Origin: Alphaproteobacteria bacterium
Lineage (GTDB): Bacteria > Pseudomonadota > Alphaproteobacteria > UBA828
Direction of reading: 5' to 3'
Length of the DNA stretch: 64,000 nt
Assembly: GCA_963422645.2 (NCBI GenBank)
Contig: CAXXVO010000009.1
Span: forward strand, 1 to 64,000
This document shows positions 42,913-50,175 of this stretch, piece by piece. The notes below the pieces were generated by a model, which did not search any database, was not told the DNA's origin, and saw nothing but the letters and a program-made list of their open reading frames with translations. The translations under genes and the position numbers were made by a program. The first letter of the stretch is position 1, and each line of letters opens with the position of its first letter.

Positions 42913-44724
42913 TTACGAAGGGGTTGGCAAGCGCCATATGGAACTTCTCGCGGGCGTCGTAGGCGGGCTTGGCCTGTTCATCGTCGGGATGTGGCTCCTG
43001 ACGGAGAACCTCAAGAAGCTCGCGAGCCGGCGGCTGCGCCAGATTGCGCATGGCTGGACCGGAAACCCGTTTGGACGCCCTGAACGCAAAAGGCAACCTT
43101 CGCCTTCGGTGCTGTGGTTGCCGGGTTTCGACGGGTCTGGACCGCCGCCTGGCGATCCCGAGATTGGGATTGAATGGCGAATGGTGATTTTGTCCTCGGT
43201 GACCAACACCTCCTTCACGATGAGCCGGACGATGCGCTGCCGTTCGGCGATGTCCAGGGTTTCGGCGGACGAGTGCAGCCGCGCCAGAAAGCCGGTCAGC
43301 GTCTCGGCGAGCCGGAGATAGGTCTCGCGATCCTTCGCCCGATCGACGGTGGATTGCAGTTCGCGATTCAGAGCCTGATCCTGACGACGGAGCTCGGACG
43401 TTCTGTCGCGCAGTTCATCGATTGTAATCAACTCCTCCTGATAGGCGTTGACCAGGCGGTCGATGCTTTTTCGGACCCGGATCAGACGGTGCCGCAGGTC
43501 GTTCTCGCGCTGCTGGTTTGGATCGGAAGCGCGGGCCGCCTGTAGTCGCCGGTCGATCTCGGCGCCGATCAGTGCTGGATCCTCGAGCAGGCGGACCACT
43601 TCGCCCCAGACGACGTCATCGAGCAAGTCCTGGCGCACCGGCCGACTGTCGCACACCGGTCCGTTGAGATGGCGCCAAGAGTCAGAACCCAGGCAGCGAT
43701 AATAGGAGATCTTGCGGGCACTCGTCTGGGCCGATGTGCGAGACAGCGCGTAGCCGCATTTGCCGCACGAGACCAGTCCCTGGAGCACGCTGGGCGTCTT
43801 CGTGCGACGCGGCGCGTGGATCTTGTTCATCTCCAGCCGCTCTTCGGCCAGGGCGAAGGTCTCTTCGCTGACGATCGCCGGCACCGGGATCTCGATCCAC
43901 TCCTCACGCGGTTTTTCGTGACCGCCGGTCGTGCCGCTGGCCACGCCGCGGCGCAGGCGCAGAGGACGTGTCACACATTTACGCGGCATCTGGCGGGTCT
44001 TGCCGAAACAGGCTTTCCCCTTGTACGCCGGATTGCGGAGCATCGCCCACACCGTCGAGCGTTCCCAGCGCGAGCGCCCGGTGGAGGTGGGTACCGCGCG
44101 CTCATTGAGCCTGCAGGTGATCGCGCCGATGCTCATGTGATCGCAGGTGTAGCAGCGGTAAACCTCGCGAACCACCGACGCCTGCGGCTCGACGATTTCG
44201 TAGAACGCATCGCTGTCCGGGGTTTTCTTGTGGTAGCGGTAGCCATAGGGCGCGCCGCCGAGGACGGCGATTTCGCCGCGTCGCGCCCGATGTCGCTTGC
44301 CGCGCCGGGAACGCTCCAGGATTTGCGCGCGCTCGTATTCCGCAATCATGCCCTGGAACTGGACGAGCAGATGATCTTCCGGGGTTTCCATCGACGGCGC
44401 TCTCAAGAACACGGTCTCGACGCCCTGACGGGCCAGCTCCTCGATGATCAGAACCTGGTAGGCATAGCGCCGGCTCATACGGTCCGGGGCATGGACCAGC
44501 ACCGTGTCGATGCGCCCTTCCGCGGCGAGATCCCTGACCCGCTCGAGCCCCGGGCGTTCGAGAACGGCGCCGGTATAGCCGTCATCTTCAATGATCATGT
44601 CGGGCGCGACGCTGTAACCGTGGTCCTCGGCGTAGGCGATCAGGGCCTCGGTCTGGCTCGCTATCGTGTTGTCATCTCTCTGCCGCTCGCCGGAGACCCG
44701 CGCGTAAATGGCTGCGATCTTCAT
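42913..44724 (-). CDS. Large serine recombinase (resolvase + recombinase + Zn-ribbon/coiled coil); reads through the element end
   Basis: IYARVS catalytic Ser, DDGYTGAVLERPGL, DRMSR, AEYER, PYGY, CGKCG...YYRC...C. AGGAG RBS. Confidence 0.93.
   Translation of the reverse strand: MKIAAIYARVSGERQRDDNTIASQTEALIAYAEDHGYSVAPDMIIEDDGYTGAVLERPGLERVRDLAAEGRIDTVLVHAPDRMSRRYAYQVLIIEELARQGVETVFLRAPSMETPEDHLLVQFQGMIAEYERAQILERSRRGKRHRARRGEIAVLGGAPYGYRYHKKTPDSDAFYEIVEPQASVVREVYRCYTCDHMSIGAITCRLNERAVPTSTGRSRWERSTVWAMLRNPAYKGKACFGKTRQMPRKCVTRPLRLRRGVASGTTGGHEKPREEWIEIPVPAIVSEETFALAEERLEMNKIHAPRRTKTPSVLQGLVSCGKCGYALSRTSAQTSARKISYYRCLGSDSWRHLNGPVCDSRPVRQDLLDDVVWGEVVRLLEDPALIGAEIDRRLQAARASDPNQQRENDLRHRLIRVRKSIDRLVNAYQEELITIDELRDRTSELRRQDQALNRELQSTVDRAKDRETYLRLAETLTGFLARLHSSAETLDIAERQRIVRLIVKEVLVTEDKITIRHSIPISGSPGGGPDPSKPGNHSTEGEGCLLRSGRPNGFPVQPCAIWRSRRLASFLRFSVRSHIPTMNRPSPPTTPARSSIWRLPTPS
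42938..43073 (+). pseudogene. 5' fragment of a Na/Pi-cotransporter family gene cut by the recombinase element
   Basis: MELLAGVVGGLGLFIVGMWLLTENLKKLASRRLR...TGNPF resembles the family's N-terminus. The similarity stops at the element's inverted repeat. Confidence 0.7.
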
Positions 44725-44922
44725 GGTCGTCTCCTATGTCCTGCGCTCGGACCGGGATTTGCCGTGAAACAGATTCTGGCGAGGGACGCGCGGTGACGCT
44801 CCAACCCCGAGGTCACGGCGTTGGCTGAGACCGCCAGGGTCGGCGCGGCGGAGACGAGCGGTGGACTTCCCCGATGTGGTCCGAAGCGGTCCCGCGTAGC
44901 CGGCTGACGAGATGCGGGCCGC

Positions 44923-46173
44923 TCAGGCGGCCTTGAGTTCCGCGCCTACGGGCTCGATGTAGCCGTAGCGGCGGAGCATGCGGATCCACCGAGGAGCGTT
45001 GCGCTTGACCATCAGAGCGTCGTAGTCGGCCGTGCGGTCGTAGTAGGGCCTGCCGGTCTTGAGCACCACATAGATGATGCGCAGCATCTTGTGAGCGCCG
45101 GCGACGATGGCGCGCTTGTAGCCGCGCCGGGCGGCGAGGGCGCGGTGATGAGCCTCGAACTGGCACCCCTTGGTTCGGGCCGCGCCGTGGGCACACTCGA
45201 CGAGGCAGGCGCGCAGGGTCTTGGAGCCCATGCGGGTGCGTGCGTTGCGGCGCTTGCCCCCGCTCTCGTTGTTGCCGGGGCAGAGCCCGGCCCAGGCGGC
45301 GAAGTGCTCCTTGGAGGCGAACACGCCGATGTCGGGGCCGATCTCGATGAGGATGGTCGAGGCGGCGGTGCGGTCGATGCCGGGGATGGTGGTCAGCAGA
45401 CGGAGCTGCTCCTCCCACGGTGTCATCTGCCCGTCGATCTTCCTGGTGTAGGACGCGATGCGCGCCTCAAGCGCGTCATGCTCCTCCAGCAGGTCGTTGA
45501 GCATGAAGCGGTCGTTGTCGCCCAGGCTCAGGGTGAGCGCCTCGCCGAGCCCCTCCAGCTTGTTCGCAACGTGGCTGGTGAGCGAGGCGAGGATGACCTC
45601 GCGCGCCGTCCCCTGCGCCAGGCCGTCGAGGATCTTCCGGCCGTTGACGCCGAAGACGTCGGAGAGGATGCCGCCGATGCGCGCACCGGCGCGGTCGATG
45701 ATCTTCTGCACGCGGTTGCGCACGGCGGAGCGCTGCCTGACCAGGACGCGGCGCTGGCGGCTCAGTGCGCGCAGCTCCCGGAACGGCTCAGGCGGAACGT
45801 GGGAAGGCGTGCAGAGCCCGAACTGGCACACGCAGGCCAGCCACACGCTGTCCGCCACGTCGGTCTTGCGCCCCTTCAACTGCTTCACCTGACGCGCATG
45901 CACCAGGATCGCCTCGAGCCCGGCCGCCTCCAGGGCCGCGAAGGGCGCCTGCCAGTAGACCCCGGTCCCTTCCATCACCGCAGCCTCGACGCCGTGACCG
46001 GTCAGCCACGCGACCATCTCCTCCAGACCGCTCGGCAGCGTGCCGAAGCAGCGCGTCTCCACCACCGGCTCACCCTCGCCCTCACAGAGGCGAACCGTCG
46101 CGGTGATCTCCATCTTGTGCACGTCCAGACCCGCCGCGCGCGGCCGGACGACGTGCAAGCCTTCCGTCTTCAT
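44923..46173 (-). CDS. IS110-family DEDD recombinase, copy 1
   Basis: GLDVHK, VMEGTG, KTDVADS (DEDD), TIPGI, WAGLCPGNNESGGK (catalytic Ser loop). GAGGAGG RBS before ATG 46173. Confidence 0.95.
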   Translation of the reverse strand: MKTEGLHVVRPRAAGLDVHKMEITATVRLCEGEGEPVVETRCFGTLPSGLEEMVAWLTGHGVEAAVMEGTGVYWQAPFAALEAAGLEAILVHARQVKQLKGRKTDVADSVWLACVCQFGLCTPSHVPPEPFRELRALSRQRRVLVRQRSAVRNRVQKIIDRAGARIGGILSDVFGVNGRKILDGLAQGTAREVILASLTSHVANKLEGLGEALTLSLGDNDRFMLNDLLEEHDALEARIASYTRKIDGQMTPWEEQLRLLTTIPGIDRTAASTILIEIGPDIGVFASKEHFAAWAGLCPGNNESGGKRRNARTRMGSKTLRACLVECAHGAARTKGCQFEAHHRALAARRGYKRAIVAGAHKMLRIIYVVLKTGRPYYDRTADYDALMVKRNAPRWIRMLRRYGYIEPVGAELKAA

Positions 46174-46239
46174 CGCCTTCCTCCTCATTTGCGCTCTCGC
46201 CACGGCGGCGTACGATCACGCCGTGGCATCGCCACGGTG

Positions 46240-46415
46240 GAGGCGGGGACAGCGGTCGGAAGAACACGCATCCGACGAGCGGGTGCGGTGCAATTTGCCG
46301 CGCGTCCACGGCCACGGGCCGGGTACAATACGGGGTGCGGAGCCGGCCGCCGGAAGCAGTTTTGTCATCGGGAACTACGTCACCGATATAACGACGCTCA
46401 CACGTCCCCACCTCC
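46240..46415 (-). ncRNA. Putative bridge RNA (also in copies 2 and 3, at +1768 and +3537)
   Basis: Multi-hairpin non-coding region upstream of the IS110 gene with guide-like matches to the target (TGACAAAA, GTATT) and the donor junction (CGCGGCAAA, GTGTT). Boundaries are approximate. Confidence 0.6.
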
Positions 46416-46527
46416 GCCAATACCCATCCTGACACGGCAAATGGGTGCAAGCGCAAGGAAAACGTCAGCCGAACCGCTCCTGTTTCATGCCACGGGGTGG
46501 CTCAGAACCGCGGGGACCATGACTGTT

Positions 46528-48293
46528 TGCCGTGAAACAGATTCTGGCGAGGGACGCGCGGTGACGCTCCAACCCCGAGGTCACGGCGTTGGCTGAGACC
46601 GCCAGGGTCGGCGCGGCGGAGACGAGCGGTGGACTTCCCCGATGTGGTCCGAAGCGGTCCCGCGTAGCCGGCTGACGAGATGCGGGCCGCTCAGGCGGCC
46701 TTGAGTTCCGCGCCTACGGGCTCGATGTAGCCGTAGCGGCGGAGCATGCGGATCCACCGAGGAGCGTTGCGCTTGACCATCAGAGCGTCGTAGTCGGCCG
46801 TGCGGTCGTAGTAGGGCCTGCCGGTCTTGAGCACCACATAGATGATGCGCAGCATCTTGTGAGCGCCGGCGACGATGGCGCGCTTGTAGCCGCGCCGGGC
46901 GGCGAGGGCGCGGTGATGAGCCTCGAACTGGCACCCCTTGGTTCGGGCCGCGCCGTGGGCACACTCGACGAGGCAGGCGCGCAGGGTCTTGGAGCCCATG
47001 CGGGTGCGTGCGTTGCGGCGCTTGCCCCCGCTCTCGTTGTTGCCGGGGCAGAGCCCGGCCCAGGCGGCGAAGTGCTCCTTGGAGGCGAACACGCCGATGT
47101 CGGGGCCGATCTCGATGAGGATGGTCGAGGCGGCGGTGCGGTCGATGCCGGGGATGGTGGTCAGCAGACGGAGCTGCTCCTCCCACGGTGTCATCTGCCC
47201 GTCGATCTTCCTGGTGTAGGACGCGATGCGCGCCTCAAGCGCGTCATGCTCCTCCAGCAGGTCGTTGAGCATGAAGCGGTCGTTGTCGCCCAGGCTCAGG
47301 GTGAGCGCCTCGCCGAGCCCCTCCAGCTTGTTCGCAACGTGGCTGGTGAGCGAGGCGAGGATGACCTCGCGCGCCGTCCCCTGCGCCAGGCCGTCGAGGA
47401 TCTTCCGGCCGTTGACGCCGAAGACGTCGGAGAGGATGCCGCCGATGCGCGCACCGGCGCGGTCGATGATCTTCTGCACGCGGTTGCGCACGGCGGAGCG
47501 CTGCCTGACCAGGACGCGGCGCTGGCGGCTCAGTGCGCGCAGCTCCCGGAACGGCTCAGGCGGAACGTGGGAAGGCGTGCAGAGCCCGAACTGGCACACG
47601 CAGGCCAGCCACACGCTGTCCGCCACGTCGGTCTTGCGCCCCTTCAACTGCTTCACCTGACGCGCATGCACCAGGATCGCCTCGAGCCCGGCCGCCTCCA
47701 GGGCCGCGAAGGGCGCCTGCCAGTAGACCCCGGTCCCTTCCATCACCGCAGCCTCGACGCCGTGACCGGTCAGCCACGCGACCATCTCCTCCAGACCGCT
47801 CGGCAGCGTGCCGAAGCAGCGCGTCTCCACCACCGGCTCACCCTCGCCCTCACAGAGGCGAACCGTCGCGGTGATCTCCATCTTGTGCACGTCCAGACCC
47901 GCCGCGCGCGGCCGGACGACGTGCAAGCCTTCCGTCTTCATCGCCTTCCTCCTCATTTGCGCTCTCGCCACGGCGGCGTACGATCACGCCGTGGCATCGC
48001 CACGGTGGAGGCGGGGACAGCGGTCGGAAGAACACGCATCCGACGAGCGGGTGCGGTGCAATTTGCCGCGCGTCCACGGCCACGGGCCGGGTACAATACG
48101 GGGTGCGGAGCCGGCCGCCGGAAGCAGTTTTGTCATCGGGAACTACGTCACCGATATAACGACGCTCACACGTCCCCACCTCCGCCAATACCCATCCTGA
48201 CACGGCAAATGGGTGCAAGCGCAAGGAAAACGTCAGCCGAACCGCTCCTGTTTCATGCCACGGGGTGGCTCAGAACCGCGGGGACCATGACTG
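46528..48293 (-). mobile_element. IS110-family element, copy 2 (1766 bp)
   Basis: Direct repeat of copy 1, joined by CTG-TTT-GCC. Confidence 0.92.
46691..47941 (-). CDS. IS110-family DEDD recombinase, copy 2
   Basis: Translation identical to copy 1. Confidence 0.95.
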   Translation of the reverse strand: MKTEGLHVVRPRAAGLDVHKMEITATVRLCEGEGEPVVETRCFGTLPSGLEEMVAWLTGHGVEAAVMEGTGVYWQAPFAALEAAGLEAILVHARQVKQLKGRKTDVADSVWLACVCQFGLCTPSHVPPEPFRELRALSRQRRVLVRQRSAVRNRVQKIIDRAGARIGGILSDVFGVNGRKILDGLAQGTAREVILASLTSHVANKLEGLGEALTLSLGDNDRFMLNDLLEEHDALEARIASYTRKIDGQMTPWEEQLRLLTTIPGIDRTAASTILIEIGPDIGVFASKEHFAAWAGLCPGNNESGGKRRNARTRMGSKTLRACLVECAHGAARTKGCQFEAHHRALAARRGYKRAIVAGAHKMLRIIYVVLKTGRPYYDRTADYDALMVKRNAPRWIRMLRRYGYIEPVGAELKAA

Positions 48294-48296
48294 TTT

Positions 48297-50062
48297 TGCC
48301 GTGAAACAGATTCTGGCGAGGGACGCGCGGTGACGCTCCAACCCCGAGGTCACGGCGTTGGCTGAGACCGCCAGGGTCGGCGCGGCGGAGACGAGCGGTG
48401 GACTTCCCCGATGTGGTCCGAAGCGGTCCCGCGTAGCCGGCTGACGAGATGCGGGCCGCTCAGGCGGCCTTGAGTTCCGCGCCTACGGGCTCGATGTAGC
48501 CGTAGCGGCGGAGCATGCGGATCCACCGAGGAGCGTTGCGCTTGACCATCAGAGCGTCGTAGTCGGCCGTGCGGTCGTAGTAGGGCCTGCCGGTCTTGAG
48601 CACCACATAGATGATGCGCAGCATCTTGTGAGCGCCGGCGACGATGGCGCGCTTGTAGCCGCGCCGGGCGGCGAGGGCGCGGTGATGAGCCTCGAACTGG
48701 CACCCCTTGGTTCGGGCCGCGCCGTGGGCACACTCGACGAGGCAGGCGCGCAGGGTCTTGGAGCCCATGCGGGTGCGTGCGTTGCGGCGCTTGCCCCCGC
48801 TCTCGTTGTTGCCGGGGCAGAGCCCGGCCCAGGCGGCGAAGTGCTCCTTGGAGGCGAACACGCCGATGTCGGGGCCGATCTCGATGAGGATGGTCGAGGC
48901 GGCGGTGCGGTCGATGCCGGGGATGGTGGTCAGCAGACGGAGCTGCTCCTCCCACGGTGTCATCTGCCCGTCGATCTTCCTGGTGTAGGACGCGATGCGC
49001 GCCTCAAGCGCGTCATGCTCCTCCAGCAGGTCGTTGAGCATGAAGCGGTCGTTGTCGCCCAGGCTCAGGGTGAGCGCCTCGCCGAGCCCCTCCAGCTTGT
49101 TCGCAACGTGGCTGGTGAGCGAGGCGAGGATGACCTCGCGCGCCGTCCCCTGCGCCAGGCCGTCGAGGATCTTCCGGCCGTTGACGCCGAAGACGTCGGA
49201 GAGGATGCCGCCGATGCGCGCACCGGCGCGGTCGATGATCTTCTGCACGCGGTTGCGCACGGCGGAGCGCTGCCTGACCAGGACGCGGCGCTGGCGGCTC
49301 AGTGCGCGCAGCTCCCGGAACGGCTCAGGCGGAACGTGGGAAGGCGTGCAGAGCCCGAACTGGCACACGCAGGCCAGCCACACGCTGTCCGCCACGTCGG
49401 TCTTGCGCCCCTTCAACTGCTTCACCTGACGCGCATGCACCAGGATCGCCTCGAGCCCGGCCGCCTCCAGGGCCGCGAAGGGCGCCTGCCAGTAGACCCC
49501 GGTCCCTTCCATCACCGCAGCCTCGACGCCGTGACCGGTCAGCCACGCGACCATCTCCTCCAGACCGCTCGGCAGCGTGCCGAAGCAGCGCGTCTCCACC
49601 ACCGGCTCACCCTCGCCCTCACAGAGGCGAACCGTCGCGGTGATCTCCATCTTGTGCACGTCCAGACCCGCCGCGCGCGGCCGGACGACGTGCAAGCCTT
49701 CCGTCTTCATCGCCTTCCTCCTCATTTGCGCTCTCGCCACGGCGGCGTACGATCACGCCGTGGCATCGCCACGGTGGAGGCGGGGACAGCGGTCGGAAGA
49801 ACACGCATCCGACGAGCGGGTGCGGTGCAATTTGCCGCGCGTCCACGGCCACGGGCCGGGTACAATACGGGGTGCGGAGCCGGCCGCCGGAAGCAGTTTT
49901 GTCATCGGGAACTACGTCACCGATATAACGACGCTCACACGTCCCCACCTCCGCCAATACCCATCCTGACACGGCAAATGGGTGCAAGCGCAAGGAAAAC
50001 GTCAGCCGAACCGCTCCTGTTTCATGCCACGGGGTGGCTCAGAACCGCGGGGACCATGACTG
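48297..50062 (-). mobile_element. IS110-family element, copy 3 (1766 bp)
   Basis: Direct repeat, joined to copy 2 by CTG-TTTT-GCC (one extra T). Confidence 0.92.
48460..49710 (-). CDS. IS110-family DEDD recombinase, copy 3
   Basis: Translation identical to copy 1. Confidence 0.95.
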   Translation of the reverse strand: MKTEGLHVVRPRAAGLDVHKMEITATVRLCEGEGEPVVETRCFGTLPSGLEEMVAWLTGHGVEAAVMEGTGVYWQAPFAALEAAGLEAILVHARQVKQLKGRKTDVADSVWLACVCQFGLCTPSHVPPEPFRELRALSRQRRVLVRQRSAVRNRVQKIIDRAGARIGGILSDVFGVNGRKILDGLAQGTAREVILASLTSHVANKLEGLGEALTLSLGDNDRFMLNDLLEEHDALEARIASYTRKIDGQMTPWEEQLRLLTTIPGIDRTAASTILIEIGPDIGVFASKEHFAAWAGLCPGNNESGGKRRNARTRMGSKTLRACLVECAHGAARTKGCQFEAHHRALAARRGYKRAIVAGAHKMLRIIYVVLKTGRPYYDRTADYDALMVKRNAPRWIRMLRRYGYIEPVGAELKAA

Positions 50063-50175
50063 TTTTGTGAGTTTGATCGGGCACCAGGATCGCGTAGGCG
50101 TTGTGGAGTTTGGCGTCGAGCAGACGATCGAAGGCATAAGCGAGGTGAACCGTGGGCCGAGCGCCCAAGCGACGT

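Follow-up and report, generated by a model that had tools for sequence, protein, structure and literature searches.

An upstream-encoded candidate bridge RNA with a probably reversed target-guide order in an IS110-family element of an alphaproteobacterium

We have analysed a stretch of 64,000 nucleotides (nt) from an alphaproteobacterium of the UBA828 lineage (assembly GCA_963422645.2, contig CAXXVO010000009.1, positions 1 to 64,000; hereafter the window, to which positions without a contig label refer), in which an IS110-family insertion sequence (IS) of 1765 nt (~1.77 kb) is present as three identical head-to-tail copies on the minus strand (44761-50062). It is highly probable that the non-coding left end of this element encodes a bridge RNA with a conserved core at 46414-46240 of the minus strand. 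An earlier reading of the window, made from its letters without database searches (the sequence-only reading), had proposed such an RNA with four guides at 46240-46415, a span that coincides with the core enclosed by the outer stem described below. Its bridge-RNA interpretation in general is very likely correct on the present comparative evidence; two of its four guide assignments were confirmed, one was relocated, and the right donor guide is left without a supported candidate. Guide-to-DNA covariation was seen for three of the four guides. The order within the target module would be the reverse of that in IS621, because the segment that tracks the right flank lies upstream of the left target guide.

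The bridge RNA and recombinase of IS621 have been described in detail, including structures 8wt6-8wt9 (Durrant et al. 2024, PMC11208160; Hiraizumi et al. 2024, PMC11208158), and the guide-RNA mechanism has been established experimentally for IS621 and ISEc21 (PMC11208160, PMC11187229). What is said here of these and of the other cited systems is drawn from portions of the respective sources and is limited to them.

Target and donor guides

The assembly (23 contigs, 5.9 Mb) contains 48 full-length IS copies, 47 of them identical (100%) and the remaining one 98% identical, which sit at 37 loci with 33 distinct flank pairs. Over these 33 distinct own-genome sites, the left flanks just before the CAGT of the left end read G17 A29 C33 A32 A33 A33 A33, with ACAAAA at 29/33 sites and CAAAA at 32/33. 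Their consensus equals GACAAAA (46366-46360, minus strand), a segment of the left end that we take to be the left target guide. The sequence-only reading had made this guide one base longer, as TGACAAAA (46367-46360), from a 7/8 match to the left target plus core; such a match occurs once in the 351 nt of left end used for this test, where 0.021 are expected, and is reached by 2.15% of 2000 dinucleotide shuffles. GACAAAA stands, on the strength of the 33 sites and of covariation, and the first T is lost, as the base at 46367 agrees with the flank at 4/33 sites only. The preferred target that had been offered, TGACAAAATAC, is likewise retained as (G)ACAAAA without its leading T and its 'TAC' tail, and the suggested check of other insertion sites gave ACAAAA-type left targets as anticipated.

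Orthologues were obtained from a scan of one genome per species (57 loci, 42-97% protein identity), from a metagenome scan with the recombinase as query (six loci) and from further searching (four loci). Five orthologue genomes were searched for extra copies, through which one new group of 72% identity and one partial copy were gained. IS ends were located in most orthologue loci, and guide covariation was assessed by permutation over ~22 guide variants, with 5000 permutations for the target guides; many of the variants are represented by one known insertion site. An all-against-all pairing of alignment columns was dropped, because the division of the sequences into two clades overwhelmed its result.

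In all left ends that could be aligned, CCCG and CUG(C/A/U/G) bracket a segment whose last three bases are AAA (AAU in locus L088), and the ~4 variable bases before AAA equal the left flank of that same orthologue. At least three non-A bases are matched in 18/22 guide variants, two bases in two variants and one in two. The summed score of 73 compares with a permuted mean of 18.4 and a maximum of 41, and 0/5000 permutations reach it. Orthologue guides that match their own left flanks include ATCTAAA, ATATAAA, CACCAAA, ACGCAAA, CGCTAAA, GTTGAGAAA, CCACAAA, GTTGAAA, CTCCAAA, GTCTAAA, GACTAAA, ATCAAAAA and TTGGAAA. The L088 guide is GTATAAT, the third A of the run being replaced by T in guide and junction alike. 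As in IS621-type systems, the left target guide repeats the top-strand sequence of left flank and core.

The left donor guide proposed by the sequence-only reading, CGCGGCAAA (46302-46294), was upheld. Its 8/9 match to the left donor plus core occurs once in the left end (expected 0.019; 1.9% of shuffles reach it), and across orthologues the segment after GUGGACG tracks the right IS end (Table 2); at the variable base, guide and IS end agree in 29/29 sequences. This segment corresponds to the right IS end plus core, as an IS621-type left donor guide does.

The right target guide had been sought in GTATT (46331-46327), and this assignment is not supported. In the left end, 4/5 matches to GGATT number 4 against 5.0 expected from shuffles, which is chance level; the column that holds the pentamer (CCCCG-NNNN-GU) scores 12 against right flanks, where the permuted mean is 14.8 and 4346/5000 permutations are at least equal, and it is also unrelated to the start of the left end. 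It is a hypervariable segment of 7-10 nt upstream of the left target guide that, as its reverse complement, tracks the right flanks (Table 2). When only bases beyond the A run are counted, the sum is 36, the permuted mean 16.0 and the maximum 34 (0/5000). In the window, this segment (46394-46388) would be complementary to core plus right flank as in IS621-type systems, a relationship that is weak or absent in 12/22 variants, and on these comparisons the right target guide more likely lies there. Its complement in the window, ATAACGA, agrees with the right flanks solely in the T over-represented directly behind the A run: the first base past the run is T at 14/33 sites, G at 16/33 and C at 3/33, in a genome of 67% G+C (binomial 2e-3 for T). 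In the L041 group and in L088, right-flank pairing fits only with one target base bulged after the first paired flank base (AAAC-C-GGA, T-G-AAGC), which may be coincidence or a hint of discontiguous pairing.

For the right donor guide, GTGTT (46267-46263) had been proposed. Here too the frequency is that of chance (4/5 matches to CTGTT in the left end: 5 against 5.4 expected), and 2276/3000 permutations are at least as high as the observed covariation. The close relatives L031, L036 and L038 all have GUGUCC with the same or similar left-end starts, that of L031 being identical, and GTGTT is given up as a guide. Column-wise mutual information and exact reverse-complement matches gave no consistent signal for a right donor guide. 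A partial right-donor match at the P4 3' strand, CCGA(C/G)(C/G)G, which is best in L076 (GGCCGUU), was judged structural.

Fold of the RNA core

The fold was derived using RNAalifold and pair counting on 22 orthologue sequences. Overall, 90.9% of cells are paired, against 38-49% with slid partners, and 18 pairs change on both sides, a number that 0/500 shuffles reach. Read 5' to 3', the putative RNA would run from an outer stem (P1) through a target internal loop, closed by P2 and capped by P3, to a three-way junction of P4, P5 and P6 (Table 1). The comparative data support this fold, in which the right guide would form the 5' side of the target loop and the left guide its 3' side; the donor guide would lie between P5 and P6.

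Among the individual helices, P2 shows G-C/U-A/A-U exchanges in 10/22 sequences and A-U/G-C exchanges in 8/22, with a fourth type, C-G, in L094. P4 is found in compensated versions (CGGCGG/CCGCUG here, GACCGG/CCGGUC in L055, GGACCG/CGGUCC in L058), and 3/5 of its pairs change on both sides. The same holds for 5/7 pairs of P6, whose compensatory variants are CGGGUGC (L038), GCAUCCG (L047), GCAUCGG/CCGAUGC (L076) and CCGCGCCC/GGGCGCGG (L055). P6 is the GCACCCG/CGGATGC hairpin of the sequence-only reading, present within 46287-46267, and the target module precedes the donor module, as that reading had it. The hairpin that it drew between the target guides is instead one strand of the covarying long-range helix P4. 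Its suggested check of fold and covariation on orthologous ends came out in favour of the left target and left donor guides and against GTATT and GTGTT.

Single-sequence folding of the left end gave z-scores of -0.48 and -1.08 and is uninformative in such G+C-rich sequence. An extension of P3 (A1 columns 83-84 with 108-109) was dropped, since these columns are unpaired in 15 and 10 of the 22 sequences. Two ways of closing the donor module, a stem between the junction preceding P5 and the bases that follow the donor guide, and an alternative helix with the P6 3' strand, are not conserved in the 60%-identity clade and were likewise discarded. Between the RNA core and the ribosome-binding site there is a further hairpin of ~40 nt (GUGGCGAUGCCACGGCG..CGCCGCCGUGGCGAG; 46189-46234, minus strand), which L036, L070 and the 60%-identity clade lack; two RNA-library contigs have 6-11 other letters in its place.

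Table 1. Features of the element and of its proposed RNA in the window
Feature	Position	Strand	Remarks
IS copy 1	44761-46525	minus	left end begins CAGTCATGG at 46525; right end finishes ..TTTCACGGC at 44761
IS copy 2	46529-48293	minus	identical to copy 1; linked to it by AAA (46526-46528)
IS copy 3	48298-50062	minus	identical; linked to copy 2 by AAAA (48294-48297)
Recombinase gene, copy 1	44923-46173	minus	416 amino acids; ATG at 46173; DEDD_Tnp_IS110 and Transposase_20 domains
Proposed bridge RNA core	46240-46414	minus	175 nt; enclosed by outer stem P1
P1, outer stem	46414-46405 with 46249-46240	minus	5/10 pairs change on both sides
P2, 5' strand GAGCG	46395-46399	minus	pairs with UGCUU 46358-46354; closes target-binding internal loop
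Proposed right target guide UCGUUAU	46388-46394	minus	5' side of target loop; hypervariable among orthologues
P3, hairpin (CGGUGA .. UCCCG) and short flanks	46367-46387	minus	A-U/G-C exchange in 10/22
Left target guide GACAAAA	46360-46366	minus	3' side of target loop
P4, 5' strand	46343-46352	minus	long-range pairing with 46259-46250 (CCGACCGCUG)
GTATT of the sequence-only reading	46327-46331	minus	single-stranded junction 5' of P5; variable
P5, hairpin UGUACCCGGCC..GGCCGUGGACG	46303-46327	minus	near-invariant; 7/9 pairs never vary, covariation neither supports nor contradicts
Left donor guide CGCGGCAAA	46294-46302	minus	directly 3' of P5
P6, hairpin CGCACCCG .. CGGAUGCG	46267-46287	minus	
GTGTT of the sequence-only reading	46263-46267	minus	overlaps P6 end and following junction
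Left arm of inverted repeat TGAAACAG	46479-46486 (approximate)	minus	about 39 nt (~35-40 nt) inside left end
Right arm of inverted repeat CTGTTTCA	about 44766-44773	minus	4 nt inside right IS end

Table 2. Sequences that change together in orthologues
Comparison	Locus	Guide or left arm	Junction, right IS end or right arm	Matched
Left donor guide and right IS end	this window	CGCGGCAAA	CACGGC	
Left donor guide and right IS end	L055 group, L062	AGCAGCAAA	CACAGC	
Left donor guide and right IS end	L056 / L054	UGCAGCAAA	CGCAGC / CCCAGC	
Left donor guide and right IS end	L079	CACAACAAA	ACACAAC	9/9
Reverse complement of upstream segment and right junction	L059 group	ATGCGGA	AATGCGGGC	ATGCGG
Reverse complement of upstream segment and right junction	L092	ACCTTCA	AACCTTCC	ACCTTC
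Reverse complement of upstream segment and right junction	L094	AAAACGA	AAAACGGCG	AAAACG
Reverse complement of upstream segment and right junction	L039	AAAAGGAA	AAAGGAGA	AAAGGA
Reverse complement of upstream segment and right junction	L089	ACCGCAG..	AAACCGCC	ACCGC
Reverse complement of upstream segment and right junction	L062	AAAGGTGA	AAAGGGCG	AAAGG
Reverse complement of upstream segment and right junction	L058	ATTCGGA	AAATTCAA	ATTC
Left and right repeat arms	L059	TGAAAT	ATTTCA	
Left and right repeat arms	L079	TGTAACT	AGTTACA	
Left and right repeat arms	L065	ATGAAACGT	ACGTTTCAT	
Left and right repeat arms	L094	TGAAAGT	ACTTTCA	

Insertion sites and the crossover core

Five insertion sites have empty paralogues in the same genome. 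The window's own site in its empty form reads ..ACTCACAAAATCCCGG.. (2 copies) and has four A; a second empty paralogue reads ..GGAACAAAACGCTTC.. (23 copies) and a third ..GAACAAAGTGCATG.. (66 copies). Reconstruction of the target, with the donor supplying three A, was confirmed at 3/5 loci with empty paralogues. The fourth paralogue (GACAAGACGC) implies a G-to-A change, and at the fifth site (C6:66372) the right junction CACGGC-ATATCG is 3 nt short by comparison with 103 empty paralogues (..GGACAAGGATATCG..), which looks like an aberrant event. The donor junction between copies 2 and 1 is CACGGC-AAA-CAGT. A target with four A and a donor with three A give a left junction with four A and a right junction with three A; beyond the shared core no target duplication is found, as is characteristic of site-specific insertion in the IS110 group. 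In the window, the left flank of copy 3 is ..ACTCAC AAAA (50063-50066), and copy 1 is followed by AAA (44758-44760) and the right flank TCCC. The target and donor rebuilt by the sequence-only reading were right in this respect, and the crossover that it placed within the A run is borne out by the empty sites and the junction.

The AA core of that reading is compatible with the data, and two registers come into question. At the right junctions, CACGGC is followed by A33 A32 and then by A24/G8/T1 over the 33 sites. If the core is the last two A of the target, as first proposed, the guide geometry is suited but a mismatch arises at 9/33 sites (8 AAG, 1 AAT); one base leftward, there is no mismatch at any site, yet the guides overrun the core. 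At the nine mismatch sites, the donor's A is kept in the left junction and the target's G or T in the right junction, a pattern that would be expected from top-strand-only transfer and that is consistent with the part of preprint 10.1101/2025.10.25.684509 drawn on here. The AAAA tandem junctions (5/11) are not derivable from any one core register, and our guess is that they reflect slippage in the A run or a circle with four A. The left junction retains a perfect left-target match, and re-insertion there would be expected to yield AAA junctions. The effective target is only ~7 nt.

The element, its copies and its ends

The recombinase combines a RuvC-like DEDD N-domain (PF01548, E = 1.8e-23) with a Transposase_20 C-domain (PF02371, E = 4.5e-21), the domains of the IS110 family, and distantly matches the solved transposases of IS621 (E = 6e-16) and ISCro4 (E = 3e-15), with an ..ESG.. 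stretch aligned. The non-coding ends measure 352 nt on the left, upstream of the gene (46525-46174), and 162 nt on the right (44922-44761), which is the layout of the IS110 group.

A subterminal inverted repeat of 6-9 bp, with compensatory changes, is present (Tables 1 and 2), against a figure of 7-17 bp for IS1111. Its arms change together in orthologues, with a mean longest repeat of 6.64 against 5.94 permuted (0/500); the L096 row of this test is invalid, as the locus was not re-oriented. In circular or tandem copies, the two arms would hold the donor junction within a loop of ~50 nt.

Arrays of two to five complete copies occur at 6/37 loci (a single array with five copies, two with three and three with two), and their 11 internal junctions are AAA in six cases and AAAA in five. 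Besides the window array (44758-50067), they lie on contigs C5, C8, C11 and C16, and one chromosomal site was found with one, two and three copies on contigs C19, C8 and C10. Tandem Repeats Finder did not report the array, because its period exceeds 500. The near-identity of the 48 copies points to recent activity. Among the orthologues, three loci bear traces of repeated insertion at IS ends: in L082 a sister element's right end (..GTTACACAAC AAA) makes up the left flank, in L039 the left flank (..GCACGGCTAAA) resembles a right end, and in L051 the right-end tip is duplicated.

Several observations concern the surroundings of the copies. A large serine recombinase gene with Resolvase, Recombinase and Zn_ribbon_recom domains (42913-44724, minus strand) begins 33 nt downstream of the right junction of the array. 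The sequence that carries the array itself recurs in the genome; in three copies the IS site is occupied and in two it is empty. Other repeats abound in the genome. One word, which ends ..CCTGGGCAGTTAC, recurs at many places with unrelated sequence following, as at the edge of a different mobile element. Target-like words also occur in two further repeat families, of 103 and 66 empty copies, and the IS has struck each of these once. Three insertions (C3:21996, C5:178577 and C15:27109, minus-strand coordinates) lie within one short repeat family (..GCCGTGAGCGACAA.ACGC..AGAGCG..), which recalls the targeting of repetitive extragenic palindromes known for other IS110 elements. At C8:774879 and C21:59024, one copy's right flank, once reverse-complemented, equals the other copy's left flank, and both adjoin a ..GGGCAGTTAC repeat; this pair could represent an IS-mediated inversion or two insertions next to copies of that repeat. 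The reported contamination of the assembly is 8.48%, and some duplicates could stem from a second strain.

Expression and distribution

Four metatranscriptome runs, each from a different study, were examined. Three of them contain contigs of 90-99% identity to the element that span parts of its left end; in run X16, contigs were found over the gene and not over the left end, which is no evidence of absence. One contig of 823 nt joins a left end, ~163 diverged letters and a right end, representing a circle or tandem junction of a relative. These contigs are a weak hint of expression. No terminator consensus was found around the right-end/left-end junction. Sub-threshold Rfam matches (Pseudomonas sRNA P10 inside the gene; prion pseudoknot) were taken as chance. 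A covariance model built on the core still detects family members at ~42% protein identity and gives a weak match in Caballeronia (E = 0.012). It found no match in relatives of 37-45% identity from Alicyclobacillus, Variovorax, Streptomyces, Rhodococcus and Cupriavidus, including plasmids of Streptomyces and Variovorax, and none in 150 other sampled genomes of the class.

Discussion

The proposed RNA resembles that of IS621 in being encoded in a long left end upstream of a DEDD/serine recombinase, in having its target module before its donor module, in left guides that read as the top strand and run into a core of the 2-nt type, and in core size (175 nt here, 177 nt in IS621). It differs in a distantly related and longer recombinase (416 amino acids against 328), in an outer stem that encloses both modules, in a donor guide that would lie in a three-way junction rather than in a simple internal loop, in a core within an A run (AA) rather than CT, in the shortness of its effective target and in having no right donor guide that we could find. 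A further difference is within the target loop: the right target guide would lie 5' of the left one here and lies 3' in IS621, the segment that tracks the right flank being at least 22 nt upstream of the left target guide. The claim of a bridge RNA of IS621 order holds as to a bridge-type guide RNA in the left end with its target module first, and gives way as to the order inside that module.

That order recalls the IS1111-type seekRNAs of ISEc11, ISPa11 and ISKpn4 (Siddiquee et al. 2024, PMC11187229), in which, by the wording of the paper, the complement of the top strand lies 5' of that of the bottom strand, and which also have subterminal inverted repeats of several bp. Those RNAs, however, are encoded downstream of the gene in the right end, whereas the present one lies upstream, and the left repeat arm here is set ~35-40 nt inside the left end. 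The seekRNA of ISEc21, an IS110-type element described in the same paper, shares the upstream non-coding location and a guide RNA that matches both target strands, but its top-strand match is 3' of its bottom-strand match, the opposite of this element. On sequence comparison, the element would combine an upstream location with the target-guide order of the IS1111 type. In the text of literature on ISHne5/ISAar29 and on tandem or head-to-tail elements, no description of this order in IS110-group elements was found; it may already be drawn for some such element. Two preprints (10.64898/2026.08.14.744561, 10.64898/2026.08.31.748434) have described tandem arrays made up of complete IS110 modules, as well as recombination at one-sided ('half-match') targets. 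The present arrays share with those loci the head-to-tail arrangement of complete modules and a left junction whose full left-target match is reusable as a one-sided target, and differ in comprising up to five complete copies with two junction types, AAA and AAAA.

The exact model of the sequence-only reading, in which the left guide comes first in each loop as in IS621 (TGACAAAA, a local hairpin and GTATT, then CGCGGCAAA, a hairpin and GTGTT), has in its favour that all four strings are present on the minus strand where it placed them and that target precedes donor. In addition, for some members of the family (this element, L094 and the 60%-identity clade), pairing is conceivable between the donor's invariant AAC and the GUU of GUGUU, which follows P6. 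We nevertheless hold this model to be improbable, given that both pentamers occur at chance frequency, that the GTATT column falls below its permuted mean for right flanks, that identical GTATT or GTACT columns stand alongside differing flanks and differing left-end starts, that the GUGUCC of L031, L036 and L038 is without the UU, and that the supposed local hairpin is a strand of P4. Alternatively, the target-left and donor-left words could be DNA sites for protein binding or synapsis, with the fold serving as an mRNA leader that controls recombinase expression. Conservation extends to the ribosome-binding site, the subterminal inverted repeat suggests structure at the level of DNA or of single strands, and neither a promoter consensus nor expression data for this genome speak for a separate RNA. 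However, a DNA site need not follow the foreign flank of each orthologue base by base, and sense matching of one flank combined with antisense matching of the other, the two overlapping at the core, is what marks the RNA mechanism demonstrated for IS621 and ISEc21; with compensatory changes in helices P1-P6 as well, this alternative is very improbable. That the matches are functionless, arising by chance or by carry-over from the flanks, can hardly be maintained: each long match taken singly has p ~0.02 in the left end, but covariation over ~22 variants is equalled in 0/5000 permutations, the variable base of the donor guide is identical in 29/29 sequences, and 33 independent sites share the sequence of the guide.

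A number of points weigh against the bridge-RNA reading as set out here. The orthologues form two main clades, and permutation counts overstate their independence. Right-flank pairing is patchy, with at least three bases in 6/22 variants, two in four and none or one in 12, and in this genome the sole preferences past the A run are the T (14/33) and the scarcity of C (3/33). The left donor guide and the right IS end disagree at one base in this element (G for A) and at a single base in L065, L070 and L086 alike. None of seven segments examined as right donor guide, GTGTT included, beat permutation, in a test of contiguous, core-anchored pairing only, whereas IS621 pairs discontiguously. No sigma-70-like promoter consensus was found at the right-end/left-end junction, and Rfam gave nothing at gathering score in the searched region, the sub-threshold matches belonging to unrelated families. 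The RNA-library contigs derive from relatives, may include DNA and show neither ends, strand nor abundance.

Under the bridge-RNA reading, the left-end region would act as an RNA that the DEDD/serine recombinase binds, and the RNA-bound recombinase would join the circular or tandem junction CACGGC-AAA-CAGT to (G)ACAAAA(T/G) sites by a crossover inside the A run. A bolder version, which we regard as unlikely though worth stating, would place the clade between the two known layouts of IS110-family guide RNAs, with the left-end encoding of IS621, the target-guide order of the IS1111 type and a covarying subterminal inverted repeat. No fourth guide would then serve the start of the left end, which would be recognised through the folded junction (repeat arms, ~50-nt loop), and the recombinase, with effective target recognition of only ~7 nt, would be naturally promiscuous and very active.

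Conclusions

Bridge recombinases are under development as programmable tools for DNA insertion, and nearly all of the rules for them come from IS621 and a few relatives. The element described here is evidently very active and has a short, A-rich core and a different guide arrangement. The true right target guide does not appear to be where the IS621 template puts it, and the case is therefore a caution against annotating guides by short string matches. The proposed system would account for the many insertions and tandem arrays in this genome. If the arrangement is true, the order of the guides in the target loop is not fixed among bridge RNAs encoded in left ends, and the element would link the IS110 and IS1111 layouts.

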